Assembly (NCBI GenBank): GCA_038248345.1
Contig: JBBRXO010000002.1
Coordinates: 22,681-86,680 of the forward strand
Direction: 5' to 3'
DNA length: 64,000 nucleotides
Source of the DNA: Armatimonadota bacterium
Lineage (GTDB): Bacteria; Armatimonadota; Hebobacteria; CAIYQO01
Shown piece after piece: positions 3,688 through 62,204 of the stretch (within the stretch, counting starts at the first letter, position 1; each line of letters begins with the position of its first letter). A program made the position numbers and the translations under genes. The notes under the pieces are model-generated. The model was not told where the DNA came from. It was given only the letters and a program-made list of their open reading frames with translations, and made no database searches.

Positions 3688-4144
<457 letters not shown>

Positions 4145-4215: not shown

Positions 4216-4301
4216 CTGAGAACGCCAATCTCCGCATTGGCCCGTAGCCCGCGCCCGCCGTGGCGCGTGTCAAGTTGCACGCAGGATGCGTGCGCTCCCA
4301 G
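4216..4301. repeat. Nested REP cluster (CTGGGAGCGC-type inverted pair enclosing a GTAG REP)
   Basis: GCCAAT..ATTGGC hairpin; GTAGCCCGCGCCCGCCGTGGCGCG (also at 45269-45293 on minus strand); GCACGCAGGATGCGTGC hairpin. Confidence 0.65.
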
Positions 4302-6847: not shown

Positions 6848-7624
6848 ATGCGATACAAGATATCCATGCCACGCGGCTTCGGCGTTGTAGAGGCGATTAT
6901 TGTCGTTGCTGCGTTGGTGATAGTAGCCGTTATCCTGTTCCCGGTATTAACGCCAAGCAATCAAAAAAATACCACGGCACTTCACTGCACGAATAACCAA
7001 CGCCAGATCGCCCTTGCATGGTCGGAGTATGTCCAACGACATGATGAAACCTTCCCTGATGCCAGTATTGCCTGGACCCTATTTAAAAAAGAAAATGCAC
7101 CAGTTTATAGATGCCCAGATCATAGTGCTGCAGTGAATGGATACGTGTTCAATGCGAGACTCAGCTAAAGAAAGCTGAGCGATCTTAGCTATCCCCTCTC
7201 AACCACTTGTTTCTTAACTGCTGACGGAAAAAGCAGTGAAATTTCTGGGACATACGCCAATGTAGCCTATGATCAAACGAATATTGATATGAAGCGGCAC
7301 AAACCTTATTTTTGTAGTAGCTTCTTAGATGGTCATGTAGAATATTTGAAGGGGAAGGATATCACCACCTGGCTCTCAGCAAAGAGCCAGCAATACACGT
7401 CGCAGACTTGCCCAGCCGGGGTGGCACAGCCGGTTACCACCACCTTCGCATCGGCAACCTGGGCTGTGACCAGTGGCGTGGTGGATGACGTGAGCGGGCT
7501 GCCGAAGGCGGATATGCTGGGTGGGGACGTGACCTTTAGCAAGGCGGGTAGCTATACCATTACCGCCACCGGGTCGGCGGTGGTTGCGCCACCTACTACG
7601 GTTTATGAGTTCAGGGTGAAGTAA
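6848..7624 (+). pseudogene. Prepilin-type N-terminal methylation / H-X9-DG protein interrupted by one in-frame TAA (7166-7168)
   Basis: G|FGVVE plus hydrophobic helix, CTNNQRQIALA..Y.Q.HDETFP, and H-KPYFCSSFL-DGH in the same frame after the stop. Confidence 0.8.
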
Positions 7625-7633
7625 GAAGTCCCC

Positions 7634-7814
7634 GTAGCATGGGCGTCCCACCCATGAGAACGGGGATTAACACCACGCGCTAAAGCACGTGGCTATAAGA
7701 TCATGCATCCTGAAGGGCGCTGGACATTCGATTCCGAAAAGTCCGCGAAGGCGAACGAACGGCGCGTAGCGCCCTGCAGCCGGGATTTCAATCCCAGCGG
7801 AAAGAGGTTTTGCA
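7634..7814 (+). repeat. Composite multi-hairpin element, copy 1 (modules B-C-E)
   Basis: Collinear with the reverse complement of 15757-15946 and 25271-25409. Confidence 0.85.
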
Positions 7815-7839
7815 TTTACCTCAAATGTGGTATGGCAGG

Positions 7840-7924
7840 AATATCGTTTTTAGCGATAATCCGTCCTCCCTGGCCTGACCATGAACGACCAGGCGAACAG
7901 GAGGGACGCTAAAAAATCTATACT
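7840..7924. mobile_element. Small TIR-bounded MITE-like element
   Basis: ATATCGTTTTTAGCG ... CGCTAAAAAATCTATACT; internal CCTCCCTGGCCTGACCATGAACGACCAGGC matches 62041-62070 on minus strand. Confidence 0.65.
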
Positions 7925-8150
7925 TGGGGGAGGTATGGACAGTATCTCATATTGCTGATATTCTATCCTTATTATGTGGACGAGATATCTCTATATAATG
8001 TTATTGTTATATTTCTCTATGGGGTGAAAATCTGATGTCGCAGAAACCCTTAGCCCAGCCGTTCACGAATATGCGCCAGGCTATCGTATTGAACACTCGA
8101 AAACCAGCCTTGAAACTTGGGACTTAAAACTGTCTTGCAGGAGAAAAGCC

Positions 8151-12583: not shown

Positions 12584-12710
12584 TCTTAACCCGGATTTTC
12601 TTGATTATTAGGATTTTCCTGATAATTTACTGCTTGGGGGAGTATCTCATCGACCCAACGGTCCAGTTATCAGGTAAATCCTTAAAATCCTACAAATCTG
12701 GGTTCTGACA
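12583..12710. repeat. Long imperfect inverted repeat with 9-nt GATT/AATC periodicity (family G)
   Basis: GTCTTAACCCGGATTTTCTTGATTATTAGGATTTTCCTGATAA vs TTATCAGGTAAATCCTTAAAATCCTACAAATCTGGGTTCTGAC. Confidence 0.75.
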
Positions 12711-13652: not shown

Positions 13653-13751
13653 TTCCAAATTCCAAATTCCAAGTTCCAAGGGGCGGCGCGTATGCGCCGC
13701 CCTTTTTTTATTATTTGAATCAGCACATGGCTTGGAACTTGGAACTTGGAA
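13653..13751. repeat. Inverted pair of heptamer tandem tracts (TTCCAAR)4 ... (CTTGGAA)3 flanking the terminator
   Basis: Directly visible at 13653-13680 and 13731-13751. Confidence 0.85.
13681..13709 (+). terminator. Rho-independent terminator
   Basis: GGGCGGCGC-GTAT-GCGCCGCCC-TTTTTTT. Confidence 0.9.
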
Positions 13752-13773
13752 CCAAATATGCTACCATACCTCC

Positions 13774-15149: not shown

Positions 15150-15320
15150 AATTAGTGGTAAAGTACGCTTTATTACTTGGCAATAATAATCTGATGTCGC
15201 GGAATCCCTTCTCCCCGCCCTGAAGGACGATCGGCGTAGCCCACTAGCCCTGTCGTTTACGGCTGGGCGATAGGCTGGCGGGTTTGAACACTATAAAACC
15301 TGACTTGGAACTTGAAACTA
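15150..15320. repeat. Mosaic leader: degenerate H hairpin + D module + TTGAACACT box + heptamers
   Basis: 15219-15280 is the reverse complement of 61924-61987; see findings. Confidence 0.7.
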
Positions 15321-15756: not shown

Positions 15757-15946
15757 TTGCAATACTCTTTCCCGCTGGGATTGAAATCCCGGCTGCAGGG
15801 CGCTGCGCGCCGGTCGTCCGCCTTCGCGGACTTTTCTGAATCGAATGATAGCGCGCTTTAGCGTACTTGCCGTTGTTAGCCACCTCTTTCAGGGGGTGGC
15901 GCCGGGAATCGCAATCCCGCTCTAATGGGCGGGACGCCACTGCTAC
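15757..15946 (-). repeat. Composite multi-hairpin element, copy 2
   Basis: Reverse complement of 7634-7814 with substitutions. Confidence 0.85.
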
Positions 15947-15988
15947 GGGTAGCGGAACCATGACCATTTGCATTGACGTGGTCTATCC

Positions 15989-17701: not shown

Positions 17702-18049
17702 ATTATTACCTCCAAAAATAGTTCAGGTTCCAATTTCCAAGTTTCGAGGTTGGTTTTGAGTGTTCAACTCGCCCAGCCGTGAACGATAGGGCTTGTGGGC
17801 TACACTTATTATCCGCCTATGCGGACTTTTTTGCTACTACGATTACCTGTGTCTATTTGTTCGCCACCATGCACGTCGGTTCCTGTTTTTTAAATGTGGG
17901 CTTCGCGCTACCCGGTATTCTATTATCTTTTACCTATTTTTCAGAAATATCGTTGAAAATAGTGGCAAATATTGACCCAAAATACCCGCCATTTTATCGA
18001 CAAAACCGTTATAATATAAGCAATCAGTAACCAGAAAGTATTTGTTGTC

Positions 18050-24476: not shown

Positions 24477-24935
24477 TCATTGCGTGAGCGGCAGATACTC
24501 ATCCAGCGTGATAACCATATGCTGCGTCCCTATCAGCTTGCGTGCGAGCGCCATATCTGCTGTCAATAATGGTACACTCTTCTGCTCCGCCAGCGCCACA
24601 TAAACGGCGTCGTAGGCAGAGATATTCAACTCGCAGGCCAGCTGCAGCGCGCGTTTGCTCAATTGTTTGAGTGGGGTGGTTATCAGTCCTAAAGCTGATA
24701 ATTCATCAACTCTGCTCGCTCCAGTTGCGGTATCAATTTCCCCACGCTGAGCTTTTTTCCAGAGAATGTTAGCACATTCAATATAGAGGAGATCTGGGAC
24801 AAAAAGAACAAATCCGTCACTCTCAAACATGTTTTCGAGAAGTTCGCGAAGTTCATGACTTCCGCGCTCTGGCGCTACATACTTGATAAGTACGCTGGCA
24901 TCATATACACAACGCGGTGGCAACTCAGTTCTCAT
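24477..24935 (-). CDS. vapC: VapC PIN-domain toxin
   Basis: VYDASVLIK, ECANILWK, SAYDAVYVALA, LLTAD. Confidence 0.9.
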   Translation of the reverse strand: MRTELPPRCVYDASVLIKYVAPERGSHELRELLENMFESDGFVLFVPDLLYIECANILWKKAQRGEIDTATGASRVDELSALGLITTPLKQLSKRALQLACELNISAYDAVYVALAEQKSVPLLTADMALARKLIGTQHMVITLDEYLPLTQ

Positions 24936-25180
24936 CGTTCCCGATCCTCACGCAACAAATCAGTTGTAGTTTTGCCATCAATTGAAGGCTTAAACAGGTA
25001 GTCGCTCTCTCTAAGACGTGTTAATGATGCCAGACGCTCACTTTTTATCCGCTTCTTCTCCAATTCGACTTCCACGAGTTTGATTACTTCAGTACCGACA
25101 GATTTTTTTTCTGCTTTCGCCATCGCTTTCAACGCCTGATACATCTCATCAGGAAAGTCTCGTACATATAATGTCGCCAT
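24932..25180 (-). CDS. Ribbon-helix-helix antitoxin (FitA/VapB-like)
   Basis: MATLYVRDFPDEMYQALKAMA..., C-terminal LLREDRER; AAAGGAG RBS; ATGA overlap with toxin. Confidence 0.85.
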   Translation of the reverse strand: MATLYVRDFPDEMYQALKAMAKAEKKSVGTEVIKLVEVELEKKRIKSERLASLTRLRESDYLFKPSIDGKTTTDLLREDRER

Positions 25181-25270
25181 AGTAGATTCTCCTTTGACAG
25201 TATTATACCCATAATAATTGCAAATGTGCAATCGTATTTGTGTGATAATGCAAGCAATAGTAAAGAGTTA

Positions 25271-25409
25271 CGCTGGGACTAAAGTACCGGCTGCGTGGCA
25301 TTAATGCCGGTAGTCCGCCTTCGCGGACTTTACATATATGGTAATAGCGCGCTTCAGCGTGCTTGCAGTTGTTAGCCACCTCGTTTACGGGGCGGGACGC
25401 CCATGCCAC
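25271..25409 (-). repeat. Composite multi-hairpin element, copy 3 (shortened)
   Basis: CGCTGGGACTAAAGTACCGGCTGC..GTCCGCCTTCGCGGACTTT..AGCGCGCTTCAGCGTGCTTG..GGGCGGGACGCCCATGCCAC. Confidence 0.8.
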
Positions 25410-25411
25410 GA

Positions 25412-27290: not shown

Positions 27291-27397
27291 GTAGGGGCAC
27301 ATGGCATGTGCCCTCAATACGGGGTATGAGATACATGACCAATTGAAGGTATGGTTACGATGTGGGCACAAGCCTTGTGCCCCTACAATCGGGTTGT
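27291..27397 (+). repeat. REP doublet family A (best copy, GTAG ... CTAC)
   Basis: GTAGGGGCACATGGCATGTGCCC ... GGGCACAAGCCTTGTGCCCCTAC. Confidence 0.9.
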
Positions 27398-28554: not shown

Positions 28555-28668
28555 ACCTAACCCCCAGCCCCTTCTCTGCGCGGGAAGGGGTGTCGATTCA
28601 ATGATTATCTATTGAAGAACGATCATTCTCCCCCTTCCCGCGCCGGGAAGGGGGTCGGGGGGTTAGGT
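28555..28668. repeat. Inverted REP-like pair (CCCCTTCCC-N-GGGAAGGGG type)
   Basis: ACCTAACCCCCAGCCCCTTCTCTGCGCGGGAAGGGG ... CCCCTTCCCGCGCCGGGAAGGGGGTCGGGGGGTTAGGT. Confidence 0.8.
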
Positions 28669-28694
28669 CGACCAAGGCTTTTCATCCCCAAACT

Positions 28695-28751
28695 ATGATA
28701 GCGCGCTTCAGCGTGCTTGCCGTTGTTAGCCACCTCCTTCAGGGGGTGGCT
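28695..28751. repeat. Isolated C module of the composite element
   Basis: ATGATAGCGCGCTTCAGCGTGCTTGCCGTTGTTAGCCACCTCCTTCAGGGGGTGGC, nearly identical to the C module within 15757-15946. Confidence 0.85.
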
Positions 28752-28818
28752 TTCCCTATCCCTCATAATCCTACCGCTTCCCTCTCCCCCGTTCCACCCA
28801 CTGAGGCCACTATTTCGC

Positions 28819-28868
28819 GCACTTGGGTGCTTGGTGGCTGGGGTGGTTTGGCATATACTATTGGCATG
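28819..28868 (+). promoter_or_regulatory. Palindrome + leaderless promoter of the response regulator
   Basis: GCAC-TTGG-GTGC, TTGGTG-N17-TATACT-N6-ATG; duplicated at 31304-31353. Confidence 0.7.
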
Positions 28869-29600
28869 TACGATATTCTGCTGGTGGAAGATAACGCGCG
28901 GTTGCGCCCGGCGCTGGTGAGTGGATTGAACGCTACCGGCAAAGTGCGGTTGGCGCACGCCTGCGCGAGCGGGGAAGAGGCGCTGGCGTGGTGTCGCGAG
29001 CACACGGCGCAGGCGATATTGATGGACGTGCAACTGGCCGGGGAGATGAACGGCATCGCGGCGGCGGTGGCAATACGACGCGAATATGCGCGTATGCCGG
29101 TAGTCTTCTACAGCATCCAGGATGACGACGCCTACTACCGCGCCTTCCGCCACGCGGGCATCCTCAGCCATTACGCCTACGTGCGCAAGTCGAACTACTT
29201 GCTACCGCAGTTGATCGTGCCCTTGCTGCAGGATGCCATCTCCGGGCGCAGTTTCATCGACCCGGATATCGAGGCGCGTGTGCAGGAAGTACGCCACAAA
29301 GACGCGCGCGACCCGATGGCGCTGCTGGAGCCGAACGAGCAAGAGGTGGCGCGCATGATCGCACGGGGGATGACCAACGAGCAAATCGCCGCGCAACTGG
29401 GCTTCCGCGATAAGCGCACCATCAGCCGCACCGACGGGCAGATATATGCCAGTTGGGGGCTGGACGCCAGCAACACTGATGAAAAAATAGCCCGCACCCG
29501 CGCAGTGATTATCATGCAGTCAGGCCGGTTGCTGGCCTGGGATACCGACGGCACCCCACGCGTGGAGGCAGAGAATGGCGAATGGGTGGTGTGGGAGTAG
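28866..29600 (+). CDS. NarL/LuxR-type response regulator
   Basis: ILLVED, ILMDVQL, YVRKS receiver; EVARMIARGMTNEQIAAQLG HTH. Confidence 0.9.
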   Translation: MYDILLVEDNARLRPALVSGLNATGKVRLAHACASGEEALAWCREHTAQAILMDVQLAGEMNGIAAAVAIRREYARMPVVFYSIQDDDAYYRAFRHAGILSHYAYVRKSNYLLPQLIVPLLQDAISGRSFIDPDIEARVQEVRHKDARDPMALLEPNEQEVARMIARGMTNEQIAAQLGFRDKRTISRTDGQIYASWGLDASNTDEKIARTRAVIIMQSGRLLAWDTDGTPRVEAENGEWVVWE

Positions 29601-31130: not shown

Positions 31131-31303
31131 GCTGTTTATTTTCGGGTATGCGGTGGGGTTCTCCTGCAAATGGGGAGACGTATCTGGTATCCACCGCTTC
31201 GCGGTGGATACCATGTATTTATATATTATTCTCTCTTCGTGTCTTCGTGCCTTCGTGGTTCACAATAACTAGGAACTAGGAACTAGAAACTACGAACTCC
31301 CCC

Positions 31304-33530: not shown

Positions 33531-33711
33531 ACCACGCGCTAAAGCACATGGCTATAAGATCAAGCACCCTGAAGGGCGCTGCTAATCCAATAATTACTTC
33601 CTTTATCTGCCCATGCCACGAAAAGCCATAACGTTTATTCTCAATTAGATGATAGAGCGCTTTAGCGTGCTTGATCTTATAGCCACGTCCTTTAGGGCGT
33701 GGAGGTGTCAC
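33531..33711. repeat. Inverted doublet of C modules with an IS200/IS605 right-end-like terminus
   Basis: ACCACGCGCTAAAGCACATGGCTATAAGATCAAGCAC... and ...GTGCTTGATCTTATAGCCACGTCCTTTAGGGCGTGGAGGTGTCAC. Confidence 0.8.
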
Positions 33712-45052: not shown

Positions 45053-45230
45053 ATTGTCTTAGAACCTTGATTCACCTGATTAGAGGATTAGCATAAGGAT
45101 ATTGCCTCTGCTGTTGGATAGCGCATAATTGAATGTAGGTAAAAACATTACTGCAGAGGCTATCCAACAGTGTAGACAAATAGCGCAGCAATAAATCCTT
45201 TAATCAGGCGAATCAAGGTTCTAAGACAAT
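45053..45230. repeat. MITE-like long hairpin (family G) with ~37-bp arms
   Basis: ATTGTCTTAGAACCTTGATTCACCTGATTAGAGGATT ... AATCCTTTAATCAGGCGAATCAAGGTTCTAAGACAAT; nested CTGTTGGATAGC/GCTATCCAACAG. Confidence 0.85.
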
Positions 45231-45423
45231 GAAGGCGTTCCCAGGGAGTTATATACCCCCCATTTTTAACGCGCCACGGCGGGCGCGGGCTACAACTCTT
45301 TGTACGCCGCCGTCCCTATTTTCTATTTTCTACTTTCTACTTCCTCTCGCCCCCCATTGCCGAACCCCCACCATAAGATGAATCATCAGCCAAATACTAT
45401 TCTAGAAATGGAGGAACCATACC

Positions 45424-46487
45424 ATGCAATTCCGAACTCTGCTGACCATCGCTCTGCCTCGCCAGTGCCCTCGCCTGGGGAGCCACAGCTCCGACGATCA
45501 CCACCTGCGTTATCGAAGATAGGTCATTCGGACGAGTAGCGCTAATATCAGGAACAACCTCAGTGGGGTGAAGGAAGTTAAATTCAATGAGTTTGCCACC
45601 GTTCATATCGTTAATAACGCCACCTCATTGTCTACTATTGTTCCTGCGGATGTCATCTACAAGGATTACACCATCACCCTTATCTCACAGGATGGAACTG
45701 CAACCGCAACTGTCAAACCGCCAGTGAACTATAACTGAGTAGACGGTGCCGAGATGATCTGGGTACCCGGCGCTACCTTCACCATGGGAAGTGCTGATGG
45801 TGTAGGTTTCGCTGATGAACACCCCGCTCAACAGGTCACCCTCTCCAGCTACTGGATATACAAATATGATGTCACTGTAGCACAGTATCGCACCTTCTGT
45901 GTCGCCACCGGGCGGGCGATGCCACAGTGGCCAGGTGATGGCTATAGTTGGAAAAATAAAAAGAGCTGGGAGCACGACGATTTACAACAAAACCCCATCG
46001 TCAATGTCAGTTGGAACGATGCCAAAGCCTACGCCGAGTGGGCGGGAGTGAAACTACCCACTGAAGCACAATGGGAATACGCCGCCCGTGGGCCGAAAGG
46101 CAACAACAACCCAAGGGCGGTAATGCTACAAAAGATGACCGCTACAACGGGTGGGATGCGACAAAGTGTGCTAACAGCAAAAACTCACATCAAGTTGGTA
46201 TGAGCACCTGGTCGGTTGGCAGTTTCCCCGTGGGTGGCAGCTGGTGCGGGGCGCAGGATATGGCGGGTAATGTCTGGCAGTGGTGTGAGGACTGGTATGG
46301 CGCTAACTCCGCCACCCTTGGCAATGACCCAACAGGGCCGGTAAGTGGCAAATACCGCGTGTTACGAAGGCGGTTCGTGACTTACATCCGCAACGACTAC
46401 CGTGGCGCGTATCGCGTCGAGTCTCGCCCTGATGAGGGTGTCTTCTTCTTCGGCTTCCGTTGTGCATCAACTGCGCCGGGGCCGTAG
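45424..46487 (+). pseudogene. Frameshifted secreted IPT/TIG-like + FGE-sulfatase (SUMF1/CLec) domain gene
   Basis: GGAGG RBS; fragments in different frames: signal peptide, ISGT.LSGVKEVKF, FTMGS..DEHP, PIVNVSWNDA, LPTEAQWEYAARG, DMAGNVWQWC, GFRC. Confidence 0.85.
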
Positions 46488-46488
46488 T

Positions 46489-47087
46489 CTAAACCCAGAT
46501 TTACTGGATTTGAAGGAAGGCATCGTTCGCTGGCAGAGTGCCTACGGCAAGGATAAGATCAAAATGGTGGTCACCGACCGTGGCTTCGACGGTGAGGATT
46601 CGCGAAATGCGCTGGCGGAAGCGGGTATCGGCAATGGTATGTGCCCGCGCAGCCCAAATCTGCTGGCAGATAAGTTGGCCGATCCGGTCTTTCGCGAGTT
46701 GCAACGTCGCCGCAGCCAGACCGAAGGACGCATCGCCATCATCAAAAACAACTTTTTAGACGGCAGATTGAGTACAAAATGGCATGAGAATCACGAAACC
46801 GAGGTAGCCTGGGCGATCCTATCGCACAATCTATGGGTGCTAGCCCGCCTTCCGACAGTCAGAAAGCAATAACCGAGGGTCGGAAACGGAAAATAGAATA
46901 GAAATCAGACACAAAAAGCGCCAAACCAAAGGCGCTGTTGATGAAACACGCCTATCCGGCGGTAAAAACTGGAATATTGGGCATAAGCAAGCCATTTTGG
47001 GGATGGCGAGCTTAAAAATAAGCCAAAATTAAACAACTCGCCACCCCCAAACGAATCCCAAGGTGGGGACTCTGGGACAGTGCCTAG
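46489..47087 (+). mobile_element. Truncated IS remnant: DDE transposase C-terminus and right end
   Basis: VVTDRGFD, RRRSQTEGRIAIIKN, VAWAILSHNL; candidate end ...CTGGGACAGTGCC-TAG; N-terminal part absent. Confidence 0.75.
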
Positions 47088-49674: not shown

Positions 49675-52600
49675 CTAGAAGGTACCGGTACCAGTGTCGG
49701 TCGTATCGATAGCAACCGCGTCCGTCGGGATAAGGATGCTGAGGGTGAATGCAGAAGCAATCACCTTGATCATGTTGTTCTCTGGCGCCAGACCTACGAC
49801 ACTACCGAGGTTATTGAAGTTTTGTGCCCCGATAATTTTGCCGTCCGTCAGGTTGATCATTTCGATCCGTGAGATGAATGCCCCTTTGGAGTTGCGCAAT
49901 CCGGCGATAATGCCGATGTTGCCAACAGCCAGGAAGCGATCATATCCTCCGATAGCAACCGAGCCAGAATCTTTAACAGTCCAGCCCAATTCGGATTTCG
50001 TCAGATCGAGATATTGCGTTTTATCCGGCAGTGAAGCGACCAGGCCGGTGGGGCCTGCGGCGGCTAAACTGCGTGGCGCGATATTATTGAACTCAATTAC
50101 ATCTACCGATGTCTTGGAATATACCAACACATGCGGATCGGTGGCCGTCTGCTTCGGATCCGCCGTGGCAATGGCGATATAATCGCTGGTAGGGCTGACC
50201 GCGATGGCGGTGACCGGTAGGTTGTCTGAACGTGTGCCCGCCAACGATAATCTATCACCACTGGCCGAGTAGAATTCAACGCCCATCTCTGTGTTGGCGA
50301 CTGCCAGATTGCCATCAGGTGTCAAAGCGATGAATGGGCGTCCAGCCTGAAAAGATTCTAACTTGATTATCGGAGTATCGGCATTGTCTTTGCTGTAGAA
50401 CAGTATCGCTGGATTGGTATTCTTTGCTTCCGAAGTGATAACGGCGATACTACCCGCCTGGCTGGCTATCTGTGCTTCCAGCATATGCCGTCCGGTATTG
50501 AGCGCAAAAGCTACTTTACGCGCTTCGGAGCCATCCGGATTCAGCACAACGATAGTGGCATTGCCGTCGGTTTCTGTTGCATAGCCACGTGCTTTTCCGT
50601 ACTGGTCGCGCAGCAGGATACCATAAGCGCCCAGTTGAATGTCCTGTTTGGGTGCCTTCGTTATCGGGTCAAGTATGGTCAGTATTGACCATGCTGAAGA
50701 GGTTACGCCTGTGGCGGTAATGGTCTTTGTCTGCAATTGTCGCAAGTTATCGGATACATAGTCGGAAGCCATACCGCTATAGCCTGCCAGAGCAAGTGGT
50801 TTAACTGGGATCGTAACGGTTGGTTTATATGCCGTGAAGTTCAATGTCACAGTAGCGGTGAAATCGCCCTTCACCCCTGCCGTGGCAGTCACAGTAACTA
50901 CAGCCGGTTTGTCCGGCGCGATGAGATAGGTGATAGCACGGCCATCAGCTGCTGAGTACATCAGGCTTCTACCTAATTTGAATTTACCTGCGGTTGTGGC
51001 GAACGTCACCGGCACACCGCGCAATGCTGTCCCACCCTTTGGAGCTGCCGGTGGCGCTGCACCAGCGCCGCCACCGGCCATCGGGTCAGTTGCCTGGACT
51101 TTTGCCATTTTAACTACTTTATAGTCTATGGCGAATTTCGGGGATACTTTTGCATTTGCTGGCAAGGCACCTAAAGCACCCATACCACTTCCACCTGCAC
51201 CAGTACCACGGCCTCCTGCACCCCCGCCAGCACCCGCTCCGCCACCTGCTGCGGCACCGCCGCCGGTGGCTGAACCGATAACCGTTGCGATGATCATATA
51301 TTCGGTTTCACCATCGGCAATGCCCTCACTCGGGGTTGCTGCGAGGTCAATCTGTGCGACAGTAACTGCCAGCCCAGCATTTTGGCCACCTTGCTGGTTG
51401 TTGTTACCATTGTTATTGTTATTGTAGCCGTTGTTGTTGTAGTTGTTGTTGTTGTAGCCACCGTTATTATTGTTATAGCCGCCGTTGTTGTTGTTGTTGT
51501 AGCCACCGTTGTTATTGTTGTTGTAGCCACCGTTGTTATTGTTGTAGCCACCGTTGTTGTTGTTGTAGCCACCGTTGTTATAACCGCCGTTGTTATAGCC
51601 ACCGTTGTTGTTGTTGTTGTTGTAACCACCATTATTGTTGTTATAGCCGCCGTTGTTATAGCCACCGTTGTTATAGCCACCACCATATGGTTGGTTATTG
51701 CCAATCGAGGTGAAGTTTATCATTGTGTTGCCGCGTAGACCGCCCGCATCTACCGCTATTACCGCTGAGCCAGCGATATTAGAGGCCATGATCTCATTGT
51801 CGATATTGCCATAGCTATCGGTGATCCCTTGAATACTGCGTAGTCGTCCGCCGGTAGTCGAGAATATTACTGGGCGATTGCTCAAGTACATGCCCCCCTG
51901 ATCTATCAGGTTAACATGAATGAGCGCGCGGCTATTACCATCTGCCGGGATGTTATTGGGGGTAACGGATACCGTAACGCCCGGGCTATTCGCCGGTAGA
52001 TTGTTAACATTCCCATTGTTGGGGTTTGCCAAAGTGGAGCCAAGGACAGTAATACGAGTAGAAGCGCCGACCGGCCCATTAAATGCGTACGCCGTCACCG
52101 TACCTACATTTTCCGCAGCCAGAGAAACGTCGAGGGTGACAATACCAGTAGTATCGGTGGTTGTCTGTCCCTGCTGCAAGCGTCCACCACTTGTCCAGAA
52201 GGTGATATTTTGCCCGGACAACGTTCCACTACCGCCCAGACGAGCTGTCAGTGTGGAACTGCTACCCTGGGTACTGGCCCGATTGAGATCGACAGTCGAA
52301 GGATTGGCCGAAAGAGATAACGTATTATTCGGTGCCGATGTTCCTCCTGTCACTGTAAAGACTACGATTTGTGATGTTGGAGGATCCTGGAAGTAACGTC
52401 CACCATCACGCGCGGTGAACATCACTGCGTAGGTACCATTCTGTGCCGGTGCATACCAGTACCAATCTCCCGTATAGGAGGTGGCATTGAAGTTGTTGTT
52501 ATTGCTTGGCTGCTCTGTAACTGTGCCGGTACTTGCCTGCGCCGAAACAATCACCTGGTCGTTCACGATGCCACCCAAGCCACTCTGGCCTGAGGAAACA

Positions 52601-52773
52601 TCCGTATCGGTGGCCGTAACGGTGATGCGGACACTACGCCCGGCAGTCACCGACGTGGCATTCGGTCGTGCCGTCACTGTAATCGGATTGCCTCGGCTAT
52701 ATTGCTGGGCAAACGCGGCTGAAGTCACTAAAAATAGTGACAAGCATAGGAATACCATCATGCGAGTTCTCAT
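49675..52773 (-). CDS. Large secreted protein: Ig-like (Big_1/invasin-type) domains, N/G/Y low-complexity tract, G/A linker, probable C-terminal beta-propeller
   Basis: AFA signal peptide; IPADGNSRALIHV..VIFSTTGG and IADGETE..GVPVTFATTAG repeats; ALTPDG and IAVSPTSDYIAIA blades. Confidence 0.8.
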   Translation of the reverse strand: MRTRMMVFLCLSLFLVTSAAFAQQYSRGNPITVTARPNATSVTAGRSVRITVTATDTDVSSGQSGLGGIVNDQVIVSAQASTGTVTEQPSNNNNFNATSYTGDWYWYAPAQNGTYAVMFTARDGGRYFQDPPTSQIVVFTVTGGTSAPNNTLSLSANPSTVDLNRASTQGSSSTLTARLGGSGTLSGQNITFWTSGGRLQQGQTTTDTTGIVTLDVSLAAENVGTVTAYAFNGPVGASTRITVLGSTLANPNNGNVNNLPANSPGVTVSVTPNNIPADGNSRALIHVNLIDQGGMYLSNRPVIFSTTGGRLRSIQGITDSYGNIDNEIMASNIAGSAVIAVDAGGLRGNTMINFTSIGNNQPYGGGYNNGGYNNGGYNNNNGGYNNNNNNGGYNNGGYNNGGYNNNNGGYNNNNGGYNNNNNGGYNNNNNGGYNNNNGGYNNNNYNNNGYNNNNNGNNNQQGGQNAGLAVTVAQIDLAATPSEGIADGETEYMIIATVIGSATGGGAAAGGGAGAGGGAGGRGTGAGGSGMGALGALPANAKVSPKFAIDYKVVKMAKVQATDPMAGGGAGAAPPAAPKGGTALRGVPVTFATTAGKFKLGRSLMYSAADGRAITYLIAPDKPAVVTVTATAGVKGDFTATVTLNFTAYKPTVTIPVKPLALAGYSGMASDYVSDNLRQLQTKTITATGVTSSAWSILTILDPITKAPKQDIQLGAYGILLRDQYGKARGYATETDGNATIVVLNPDGSEARKVAFALNTGRHMLEAQIASQAGSIAVITSEAKNTNPAILFYSKDNADTPIIKLESFQAGRPFIALTPDGNLAVANTEMGVEFYSASGDRLSLAGTRSDNLPVTAIAVSPTSDYIAIATADPKQTATDPHVLVYSKTSVDVIEFNNIAPRSLAAAGPTGLVASLPDKTQYLDLTKSELGWTVKDSGSVAIGGYDRFLAVGNIGIIAGLRNSKGAFISRIEMINLTDGKIIGAQNFNNLGSVVGLAPENNMIKVIASAFTLSILIPTDAVAIDTTDTGTGTF

Positions 52774-54149: not shown

Positions 54150-54270
54150 GATCAGTAATGAAGCGAGCTTCATTACTGGGGAATGAAAAAATCATGGCGC
54201 AGGAGGATACGCTCCGCTTCACTCCGGTATAAATACCGGAGTGCCGGCCTTGGAACTTGGAACTTGGAAC
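54150..54270 (+). repeat. H element + heptamer tract
   Basis: CAGTAATGAAGC-GA-GCTTCATTACTG, CACTCCGGTAT-AA-ATACCGGAGTG, (CTTGGAA)3; homologous to 56692-56813. Confidence 0.8.
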
Positions 54271-54295
54271 TTTTTTCGTAGGAGTAAGCAGAATC

Positions 54296-56177: not shown

Positions 56178-56744
56178 ATGACTCACGAACACACCCATGA
56201 GCGGCGCTACGATTTGCCCTTTACCTGGCCGTCGCCCGCATATTCTGTGGTACTGGTAGAACCGGAGATACCCCCCAACACTGGGAATATCGCCCGGCTC
56301 TGCGCGGCCACTGGTACGCCGCTGCACCTGGTGGGGCATCTGGGGTTCCATCCGCATGACCGCAATCTGCGCCGCGCGGGCGTCGATTACTGGGATGAGG
56401 TTAATATTCACCGGCATGTGAGCATTGACGCCTATCTGGAGTCTGAGAGACCGCCGCACTTTTACCTTTTCAGCACCCGCGGTGAGCGTTCGCATTTCGA
56501 GGTAAATTTCCAACCCGGAGACGCTTTCATCTTCGGGAAGGAGAGCGCCGGACTGCCCGATGAATTGCTCGACAAATACCCGGACAACGTACTACAAATA
56601 CCCATGCGCATAGATAAGGTGCGCTCGCTCAACCTGGCTAACTCCGTCAGTATCGTCCTGTATGAGGCGCTGCGGCAGCATAATTATCGAGGATCAGTAA
56701 TGAAGCACGCTTCATTATGTGGGGATGAAAACCTGCAATTATAG
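56178..56744 (+). CDS. trmL: tRNA (cytidine(34)-2'-O)-methyltransferase
   Basis: EPEIPPNTGNIARLC, RRAGVDYW, FGKESAGLP, RSLNLANS. Confidence 0.93.
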   Translation: MTHEHTHERRYDLPFTWPSPAYSVVLVEPEIPPNTGNIARLCAATGTPLHLVGHLGFHPHDRNLRRAGVDYWDEVNIHRHVSIDAYLESERPPHFYLFSTRGERSHFEVNFQPGDAFIFGKESAGLPDELLDKYPDNVLQIPMRIDKVRSLNLANSVSIVLYEALRQHNYRGSVMKHASLCGDENLQL

Positions 56745-56813
56745 CATCTCTTTTCCCCAGAGTAAATACCGGGGTCGCTGGCTTTGGAACTAGGAACTAG
56801 AAACTAGAAACTA
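56692..56813 (+). repeat. H element + heptamer tract (overlaps the trmL 3' end)
   Basis: GATCAGTAATGAAGCACGCTTCATTA..GGGGATGAAA..AAATACCGGGG..TTGGAACTAGGAACTAGAAACTAGAAAC. Confidence 0.8.
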
Positions 56814-58043: not shown

Positions 58044-58157
58044 TTTAATTCACAGGATAGAAGGATAATATGGATAAAAAGGGCAGAGAAGTATTATCAT
58101 GCAAAGCTAATTCCTTCACCTTTTTATCCTGACTATCCTCATATCCTGTAAATTAAA
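58044..58157. repeat. Long imperfect inverted repeat, family F
   Basis: TTTAATTCACAGGATAGAAGGATAATATGGATAAAAAGG ... CCTTTTTATCCTGACTATCCTCATATCCTGTAAATTAAA. Confidence 0.8.
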
Positions 58158-61802: not shown

Positions 61803-61848
61803 TTGCAAAACCTTTTTCTCGCTGGGATTGAAATCCCGGCTGCAGGGC
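61803..61848. repeat. Isolated E module of the composite element
   Basis: TTGCAAAACC..CGCTGGGATTGAAATCCCGGCTGCAGGGC, matching the E module within 15757-15946. Confidence 0.8.
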
Positions 61849-61905: not shown

Positions 61906-62095
61906 AGTATCTTTTTTAGCGTCCGGCCTATTCGCCCAGCCGTGAACGACTGGGCTAGTGGGCTTCGCCGAACGTCCTTCGGACGGGAACGCTAGTTTTT
62001 AACCGTCCCACCCGAAGGGCGATTGGCCGAAGGCCCTCCAGCCTGGTCGTTCACGGCCAGGCCAGGGAGGTCGGCTTGTCGCTAAAAACGATACT
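61906..62095. mobile_element. Full-length TIR-bounded MITE-like element carrying D hairpins
   Basis: AGTATCTTTTTTAGCG ... CGCTAAAAACGATACT; flanked by TGTGGGAGATGCC direct repeats. Confidence 0.75.
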
Positions 62096-62204
62096 ACTGT
62101 GGGAGATGCCTTTTGGCAGCTACCCCACTTTCATGTTAAACTATGAGTGAACAAAGAAATTATTATTTTCAATCCGCCTTATGGTGAAATAGAGGTATGT
62201 ACAA

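Follow-up and report, generated by a model that had tools for sequence, protein, structure and literature searches.

Mosaic hairpin repeats of an Armatimonadota genome probably derive from the ends of separate Y1 transposase genes

The window (the whole 64-kb stretch of DNA that was analysed) contains three long copies of a multi-hairpin element assembled from modules designated B, C and E. We conclude that these modules are probably transposase ends, together forming a mobile, mosaic, non-autonomous repeat of the REP/BIME type that is spread by Y1 (HUH) enzymes. Each module flanks a Y1 gene and arms have been exchanged at orthologous sites, so the suggestion in the initial annotation of a non-autonomous, HUH-linked repeat made of interchangeable cassettes is upheld. 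We regard it as likely that the element is mobile and gene-less, and not a regulatory RNA. The host genome (G000) comprises 2.98 Mb on 185 contigs, with a GC content of 54% and a completeness of 95.7%; G001 denotes its congener.

Long copies and solo modules in the window

The three long copies first described are all present in the sequence, with the module order B-C-E (Table 1). The length of about 190 nt given for them does not apply to copy 3, which spans only about 140 nt and in which a truncated B is fused to part of the first C hairpin. Over 98 nt, copies 1 and 2 show 88% complementarity, far above chance. Copy 2 lies between the convergent genes fhs and osmC, and copy 3 follows a pepF-like gene. 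Pfam confirms both fhs (PF01268) and the M3 oligopeptidase (PF01432); the label "prepilin-like" for the ORF at 7289-7624 is without a Pfam match at 1e-5. Module B begins just after a sense stop codon in the three window copies (at 9, 42 and 2 nt), as had been noticed, but this does not generalise genome-wide.

The solo modules reported alongside the long copies are also real, C and the outer hairpin of E being recovered by HMM and the fragment at 17811-17830 by eye. The ORF that contains the solo C has no Pfam match and reads through this module and a second palindrome before its stop.

Table 1. Repeat features of the window, with coordinates counted from its first nucleotide
Feature	Position	Strand	Basis and remarks
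Copy 1, module B (GTAG REP, 8-bp stem, 3-nt loop)	7633-7659	+	HMM; family also flanks class-2 RAYT gene at G000:C54
Copy 1, module C (double hairpin, second C subtype)	7672-7721	+	HMM; end type of Y---Q--HH tnpA at G000:C33
Copy 1, C-E linker	7722-7737	+	Begins at CT, foot of C hairpin 2
Copy 1, module E	inner hairpin 7738-7763, outer hairpin 7771-7799	+	HMM; end of tnpA at G000:C11/C96
Conserved tail 3' of copy 1 E	7800-7822	+	Common to copy 2 and the 61.8-kb solo E
Copy 2	15757-15947	-	HMM; B 15921-15947, C 15849-15899, E 15809-15834 and 15773-15801
Copy 3	25271-25410	-	HMM; B 25390-25410, C 25345-25392, E 25306-25331 and 25271-25299
Solo module C	28699-28749	-	HMM; inside the last codons of ORF 28623-29171 (-)
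C-C homodimer (gene-less version of C-tnpA-C)	33532-33580 / 33653-33702	inverted pair	HMM
Solo outer hairpin of E plus tail	61803-61848	-	HMM match 61820-61848
Partial E (degenerate inner hairpin)	17811-17830	-	By eye, no HMM match; beside F-family repeat
Family F repeats	7836-7900, 8048-8081, 15222-15271, 17767-17814, 61912-62099		Also flank Y---Q--HH gene at G000:C117
Family G GTAG REP (96 copies)	4244-4268, 45269-45294		Flanks class-2 gene at G000:C6
Family K GTAG-type REP doublets (96 copies)	502-597, 3689-3784, 27291-27386
Further palindromic repeat families	15150-15189, 54150-54189, 56692-56731; 28561-28660; 45053-45230; 58044-58157; 12679-12709, 46487-46517
Heptamer tandem tracts	13657-13754, 15295-15320, 31267-31292, 54247-54272, 56788-56813		At gene borders

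Cognate Y1 transposase genes

A PF01797 search of the host genome gave 11 matches at nine loci. Modules B, C and E each bracket, in inverted orientation, a different Y1 gene. Three copies of B lie upstream of the gene on contig C54 and an inverted copy lies downstream; an inverted pair of C surrounds the intact gene on C33; and an inverted pair of E surrounds the gene on C11, with E also following a gene fragment on C96. Thus, Y1 genes flanked by the modules, which the initial annotation had advised looking for, are present for all three.

The proposed link of GTAG-hairpin REPs to RAYT/TnpA enzymes stands for B. The C54 gene has the signature Y---NP (YIIKNP) and its best NCBIfam match is the RAYT model NF047646 (69.3 bits against a cut-off of 80); it is broken by one stop and one frameshift. 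The link does not extend to C and E, which lack GTAG and whose genes are IS200-like rather than RAYTs. The C33 gene encodes 138 aa from the ATG, includes the motifs HVH and YIKNQKIHH, and is the sole intact gene of the three. The E gene on C11 has an internal deletion and that on C96 (YINNQQKHH) is missing its 5' part. Against the IS200 TnpA model NF033573 (cut-off 55 bits), C33 and the truncated C11 score 46.4 and 54.3 bits. The C33 profile matches IS608 and ISDra2-type TnpA structures in the PDB (E 4e-15 to 2e-11), and the single C33 sequence gave no match there. There is one C gene, as well as two partial E genes whose DNA is 93.6% alike across 109 nt. Apart from this pair, the nine Y1 loci show no DNA similarity to one another.

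A tree of 76 proteins, from which two short rows (C54 among them) were left out, separates 62 Y---Q--HH proteins from three IS200-like plus the NP proteins (support weak, 88/62). By a pattern of our own, C33 and C11 fall within short-tailed subclades that lack the C-terminal extension of other Y---Q--HH proteins. Judged from their sequences, the C and E genes appear to be 1.2-like members of the TnpA-Y1 family. Subclass 1.2 is characterised by Y---Q--HH and is entered as "REP: no", with typical terminal structures generally lacking, in the description by Quentin et al. (2018, PMC6006769). The C and E genes resemble it in the Y---Q--HH signature, in a length of about 140-150 aa, in low copy number and in being near to but apart from IS200 TnpA. 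They differ in having inverted ends that are repeated genome-wide. IS200-like Y---Q--HH transposases, published without REPs, therefore keep large double-hairpin families that mix with GTAG REPs.

Homologues of these genes also have inverted flanks. For the E gene, inverted flanks occur at 18 of 24 homologues across the phylum compared with 1 of 23 control windows, and several homologues show the E layout by eye. For the C gene, they occur at 14 of 19 homologues, a count made without control windows. Five loci of C-gene homologues from Acidobacteriota (46% protein identity) carry C hairpin 2, which has the opposite direction relative to the gene compared with the host genome.

Copy 2 finds matches in 9 of 41 genomes. 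The congener has 36, many of them spanning C-E or B-C-E; G009 has only C-like matches, and G011 and G032 have only E-like ones. Among the 41 genomes, the C-E fusion is confined to the host and its congener, with C-like and E-like repeats occurring apart in other genera. No close homologue of the C or E gene was found among the three Y1 matches of the congener (77% complete). That hybrids are present in this genome although no C or E gene was detected there is consistent with repeats outlasting their gene, as described for RAYTs (PMC3686654), but is no proof of cause.

Genome-wide census and the C-E hybrid

Across the host genome, B, C and E are separate repeat families. Profile searches identified 142 copies of B, 123 of C, 76 of the inner and 103 of the outer hairpin of E; together with models for four other families, all eight span 0.75% of the genome. 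Only 7 copies of B, 8 of C, 3 of inner E and 6 of outer E were scored inside a called gene, using a crude gene caller. Among 122 full-length copies of B, the foot tetranucleotide is GTAG in 67 and GTGG in 51. We saw no GT[AG]G at the stem foot of any copy of C or E.

C and E are joined in a fixed geometry. Where they are neighbours, E follows C on the same strand in 40 of 41 cases. Pairs within 30 nt, here termed C-E hybrids, number 36, and the gap is 15-16 nt in 31 of them, compared with 12 C-C inverted pairs (24 copies) and 8 E-E pairs (16 inner-E copies). The unit just before inner E (n=76) is C in 37 cases, inverted E in 20, inverted G in 4, inverted B in 4 and another in 2, with none in 9. 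B stands ahead of the C-E core in 11 cases, and the fullest form is B-C-E-inverted B. Further partners of B are B itself, C in the other orientation, E, G and K. Many other family pairings are present at low counts.

The hybrids are diverse. Among 24 parsed copies, six combinations of C subtypes were counted, and the main C and E subtypes are found in each of their four possible pairings. E is in its left-end form in 26 hybrids and in its right-end form in 5. As a test of descent from a B-wrapped ancestor, we looked for B remnants on either side of the C-E copies and found them in 18 of 36. The hybrid cores have a mean identity of 83%, and 30 of 31 are distinct; thus, there is no sign of a recent burst, and most of the spreading of the hybrid is probably old.

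Turnover and arm exchange at orthologous sites

The site that holds C-tnpA-C in the host genome is occupied in the congener by a 140-nt E-C hybrid, with the right C arm and the downstream flank in common. Because the arms differ at orthologous sites in this way, we conclude that arms are swapped. A comparison of L117 with the C49 site shows the same E retained with different partners, B-C in the one and inverted B in the other, joined right at CT. Two-sided orthology could be established for 7 of the 20 top-scoring congener loci, which were chosen for carrying the element: two share C-E, one has E with an inverted-B partner and four have no element in the host genome.

The window copies are also subject to turnover. 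Copy 2 is absent from the orthologous fhs/osmC gap of the congener, where unrelated repeats are found, and two of the further palindromic families of Table 1 occupy that gap. In the pepF gap of the congener, B is in the same place as in copy 3, followed by different cargo and a closing inverted B. Around copy 1, the congener shows no synteny upstream of about window position 7935. A clean target site or a target duplication could not be read at any site.

A hybrid at G000:C152:2091-2394 includes 305 nt that match, at 95% identity, the right end of the C11 element together with the beginning of the neighbouring NAD synthase gene; the crossover lies within E. This piece with the 5' part of the NAD synthase gene is possibly a transduced fragment. 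A screen for gene fragments beside modules yielded 49 duplicated segments, nearly all at contig ends, and the C152/C11 segment is the only one that begins at E and enters a host gene. In two genera, the gap that separates the CN-hydrolase gene from the NAD synthase gene is occupied by a Y---Q--HH tnpA element (L003, G000:C11:32757-35212; L043, G005:C273). These elements belong to different clades and have different ends, and in three g3 genomes the gap measures only about 170-300 nt.

The arms may have been swapped by single-strand cleavage and strand transfer at C|T, by analogy with the TnpA-REP of E. coli, although we put this mechanism forward tentatively. In vitro, the E. coli enzyme cleaves at CT and carries out strand exchange between iREP sites (PMC3333891, PMC8266576); this biochemistry stems from class-2 enzymes, a clade other than that of the C and E genes. 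When DNA is single-stranded, TnpA would bind a hairpin and cut C|T at the inner foot of the arm, and the linker-plus-E part would be joined to the arm of another family. The resulting C-E hybrid could then spread as a unit, recombining further with other copies. B and other families have been added around the C-E core. Of 63 partnered copies, 58 have a CT 13-21 nt ahead of E, although the count is circular, given that all partner arms end in CT by consensus. The C33 gene, as the sole intact one of the three, is the first candidate for the enzyme.

Host recombination, by gene conversion or micro-homology exchange of abundant repeats in shared gaps, could in principle have made the mosaics, with TnpA spreading single families only. 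In its favour, junctions share a short sequence at the hairpin foot, the C152 hybrid has its crossover within E, and many other family pairings occur in low numbers. However, chance pile-up would not place nearly all C/E neighbours in one of four arrangements, nor would it hold the gap so constant, and we regard this explanation as unlikely. A single recombination event followed by TnpA-driven spread is conceivable, and overlaps with our preferred reading.

Stem changes, folding and the possibility of a structured RNA

The compensatory stem changes previously noted are partly substantiated. Two-sided changes are real in C and E, but B barely covaries; its 8-bp stem is almost invariant and has GTAG or GTGG at the foot. 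In 73 parsed copies of C (73/123), two-sided changes affect pairs 5-16 in 27, 7-14 in 19 and 26-33 in 33, and in E the outer pair 8-13 is changed on both sides in 16 of 82 parsed copies (82/103), these being counts of copies rather than of events, with a shuffle test that ignores relatedness. The changes represent a few subfamily-level events inherited by many copies.

Three stem irregularities are fixed. On its B strand, C has C.A in 69 of 73 and A.C in 70 of 73 copies, and E has T.G in 79 of 82 copies on the strand opposite to B. Read on that opposite strand, each of the three is a G.T wobble. Folded as DNA, that strand is more stable than the B strand for both C (-11.7 vs -8.6 kcal/mol) and E (-15.0 vs -12.2 kcal/mol). 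DNA folding gave z = -4.35 and -2.90, and copy 3 folded as RNA reached z = -1.30 only.

Another reading is that the hairpin cassettes make up a structured 3'-UTR RNA, as suggested in the initial annotation, or a small RNA, and that it acts on transcripts; we judge this very unlikely. The stems of C and E covary, their layout resembles that of Rfam Acido-Lenti-1, the three window copies all follow a sense stop, and genome-wide B starts within 30 nt of the sense stop in 41 of 83 such cases; proximity of B to stop codons would be expected of the outermost module. However, there is no strand bias between co-directional genes for B (39:29, p=0.27), C-E (12:8, p=0.50) or B-C-E (4:2), and only 7 of 11 B-C-E copies come after a sense-strand gene end; these strand and stop-codon counts rest on the crude gene caller, which miscalled some window ORFs. 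The genome-wide orientation bias anticipated in the initial annotation is thus absent from the host genome. The orthologous sites at fhs and pepF either lack the element or hold other cargo. Rfam returned 0 matches over the whole window at the gathering score, so a known RNA family is not directly matched here, no terminator pattern was found at copy 1, and for both C and E the more stable fold is that of the strand opposite to B. The lack of strand bias and the ortholog data together argue against an RNA dedicated to the 3'-UTR, though the element may affect mRNA secondarily, as REPs are known to do.

An origin of C and E as decayed IS605/TnpB or IscB ends, or as the guide-RNA scaffolds of such elements, is extremely improbable. 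The C hairpin resembles IS605 right ends and the cognate proteins are IS200-like, but the ends are inverted repeats around tnpA alone, and TnpB (PF01385) was not detected in the host genome by a search whose control matched in 8 of 14 genomes. A search of this genome for IscB was likewise empty, but carries no weight, as its control gave no match either.

Within the preferred reading of transposase ends spread by Y1 enzymes, we also considered whether the C-E hybrid represents a novel mobile unit of higher fitness that arose from two unrelated transposase systems, which seems rather doubtful. The ends of pure elements are mirror images, so that one strand shows only one end in wobble-paired form. 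If the idea were true, the hybrid would set an E left end and a C right end, with all three G.T-wobble hairpins, on one strand, like IS200 ends, and a Y---Q--HH TnpA (or two cooperating) could peel C-E off as one single-stranded unit. This would explain why C-E outnumbers the pure dimers, and the hybrid would then capture a stage in the change from a symmetric REP-like system to a strand-specific miniature element resembling IS200.

Comparison with known systems

The closest parallel is the REPtron (REP/BIME/REPIN plus RAYT). Shared with it are a single-copy Y1 gene between inverted hairpins and hundreds of extragenic copies, as well as dimers, mosaics, several families per genome and dimers that mix the REPs of two RAYTs. 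Module B has the same GTAG, 8-bp stem and 3-nt loop as the group-3 REPs of S. maltophilia. C and E differ from REPtrons in having no GT[AG]G foot, in being double hairpins and in having class-1-like genes.

Hybrid BIMEs that contain the REPs of two RAYTs are described from Stenotrophomonas (Nunvar 2010, PMC2817692), and in S. maltophilia, hybrids joining two GTAG families are given as about 10% of dimers (Di Nocera 2013, PMC3733652). In contrast, the cross-family hybrid described here exceeds both pure dimers and is wrapped further in a class-2 REP. The statement that the element is not a described family therefore needs qualification: its general kind, the hybrid BIME, is already published, and the dominant cross-family hybrid is what is new here. 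In the open-access literature that was searched, we found neither such a dominant hybrid nor anything linking subclass 1.2 genes to repeat families.

Elements of the IS200/IS605 group (IS608, ISDra2) share the HUH/Y1 enzyme family and subterminal imperfect hairpins. They differ from the present system, whose ends form inverted repeats of each other and whose gene does not occur in many identical copies; TnpB was not detected here. TIRtrons, compared by their published description, are similar in that Y1 genes (TIRYT) lie between non-GTAG inverted repeats, some of them double palindromes, with dispersed dimers (PMC3733652). The 26 TIRYT examples are assigned to class 2 in Quentin et al. (2018, PMC6006769), unlike the class-1-like C and E genes.

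The Acido-Lenti-1 motif (RF01687) has two hairpins, GGCU[AG], a short linker and a final CU (Weinberg 2010, PMC2864571). C read forward and E read backward have the same layout of hairpin, GGCT[AG], linker, hairpin and CT. RF01687 (cut-off 37 bits) gave no match to C or E in the window, nor at the C33, C11 and C96 loci at E<=1, and none of the 40 matches listed for the host genome, where 150 of 735 candidates were scored, falls on C or E. The RF01687 matches of this genome are a family separate from C and E.

Annotation is affected because covarying multi-hairpin motifs of this kind can be mistaken for structured RNAs. The host genome offers cognate enzyme-repeat pairs, one with an intact gene, which together with the orthologous states before and after an arm swap allow direct tests of how REPs and BIMEs spread and diversify.

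Other repeats and neighbouring genes

Acido-Lenti-1 matches above the cut-off flank a Y---Q--HH tnpA, in inverted orientation on both sides, at L030 (G001:C19; 52.9/50.7 bits) and L027 (G011:C19; 45.7/42.7 bits), and at L010 (G000:C106) they are just below it. In the host genome the motif also occurs as gene-less inverted pairs. Acido-Lenti-1 is called a family of unknown function in a 2026 preprint (10.64898/2026.10.21.760802). Rfam E-value scans of the Y1 loci gave, beyond Acido-Lenti-1 at other families, only chance miRNA or intron matches. A partial group II intron D1-D4 match (L001:3165-3324, G000:C117) scores 46.5 bits against a cut-off of 49 and lies near the F-family tnpA. No cognate Y1 gene for family K was found among the nine loci inspected.

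Right after copy 3, window positions 24477-25231 (-) encode a PIN-domain protein and a small upstream ORF, likely a toxin-antitoxin pair; the 5' part of the PIN-domain gene is seemingly duplicated in the congener. A 1032-aa protein with Ig-like domains is encoded at 49675-52773 (-), and its gene includes a tandem repeat of 21-24 nt units at 51376-51678.
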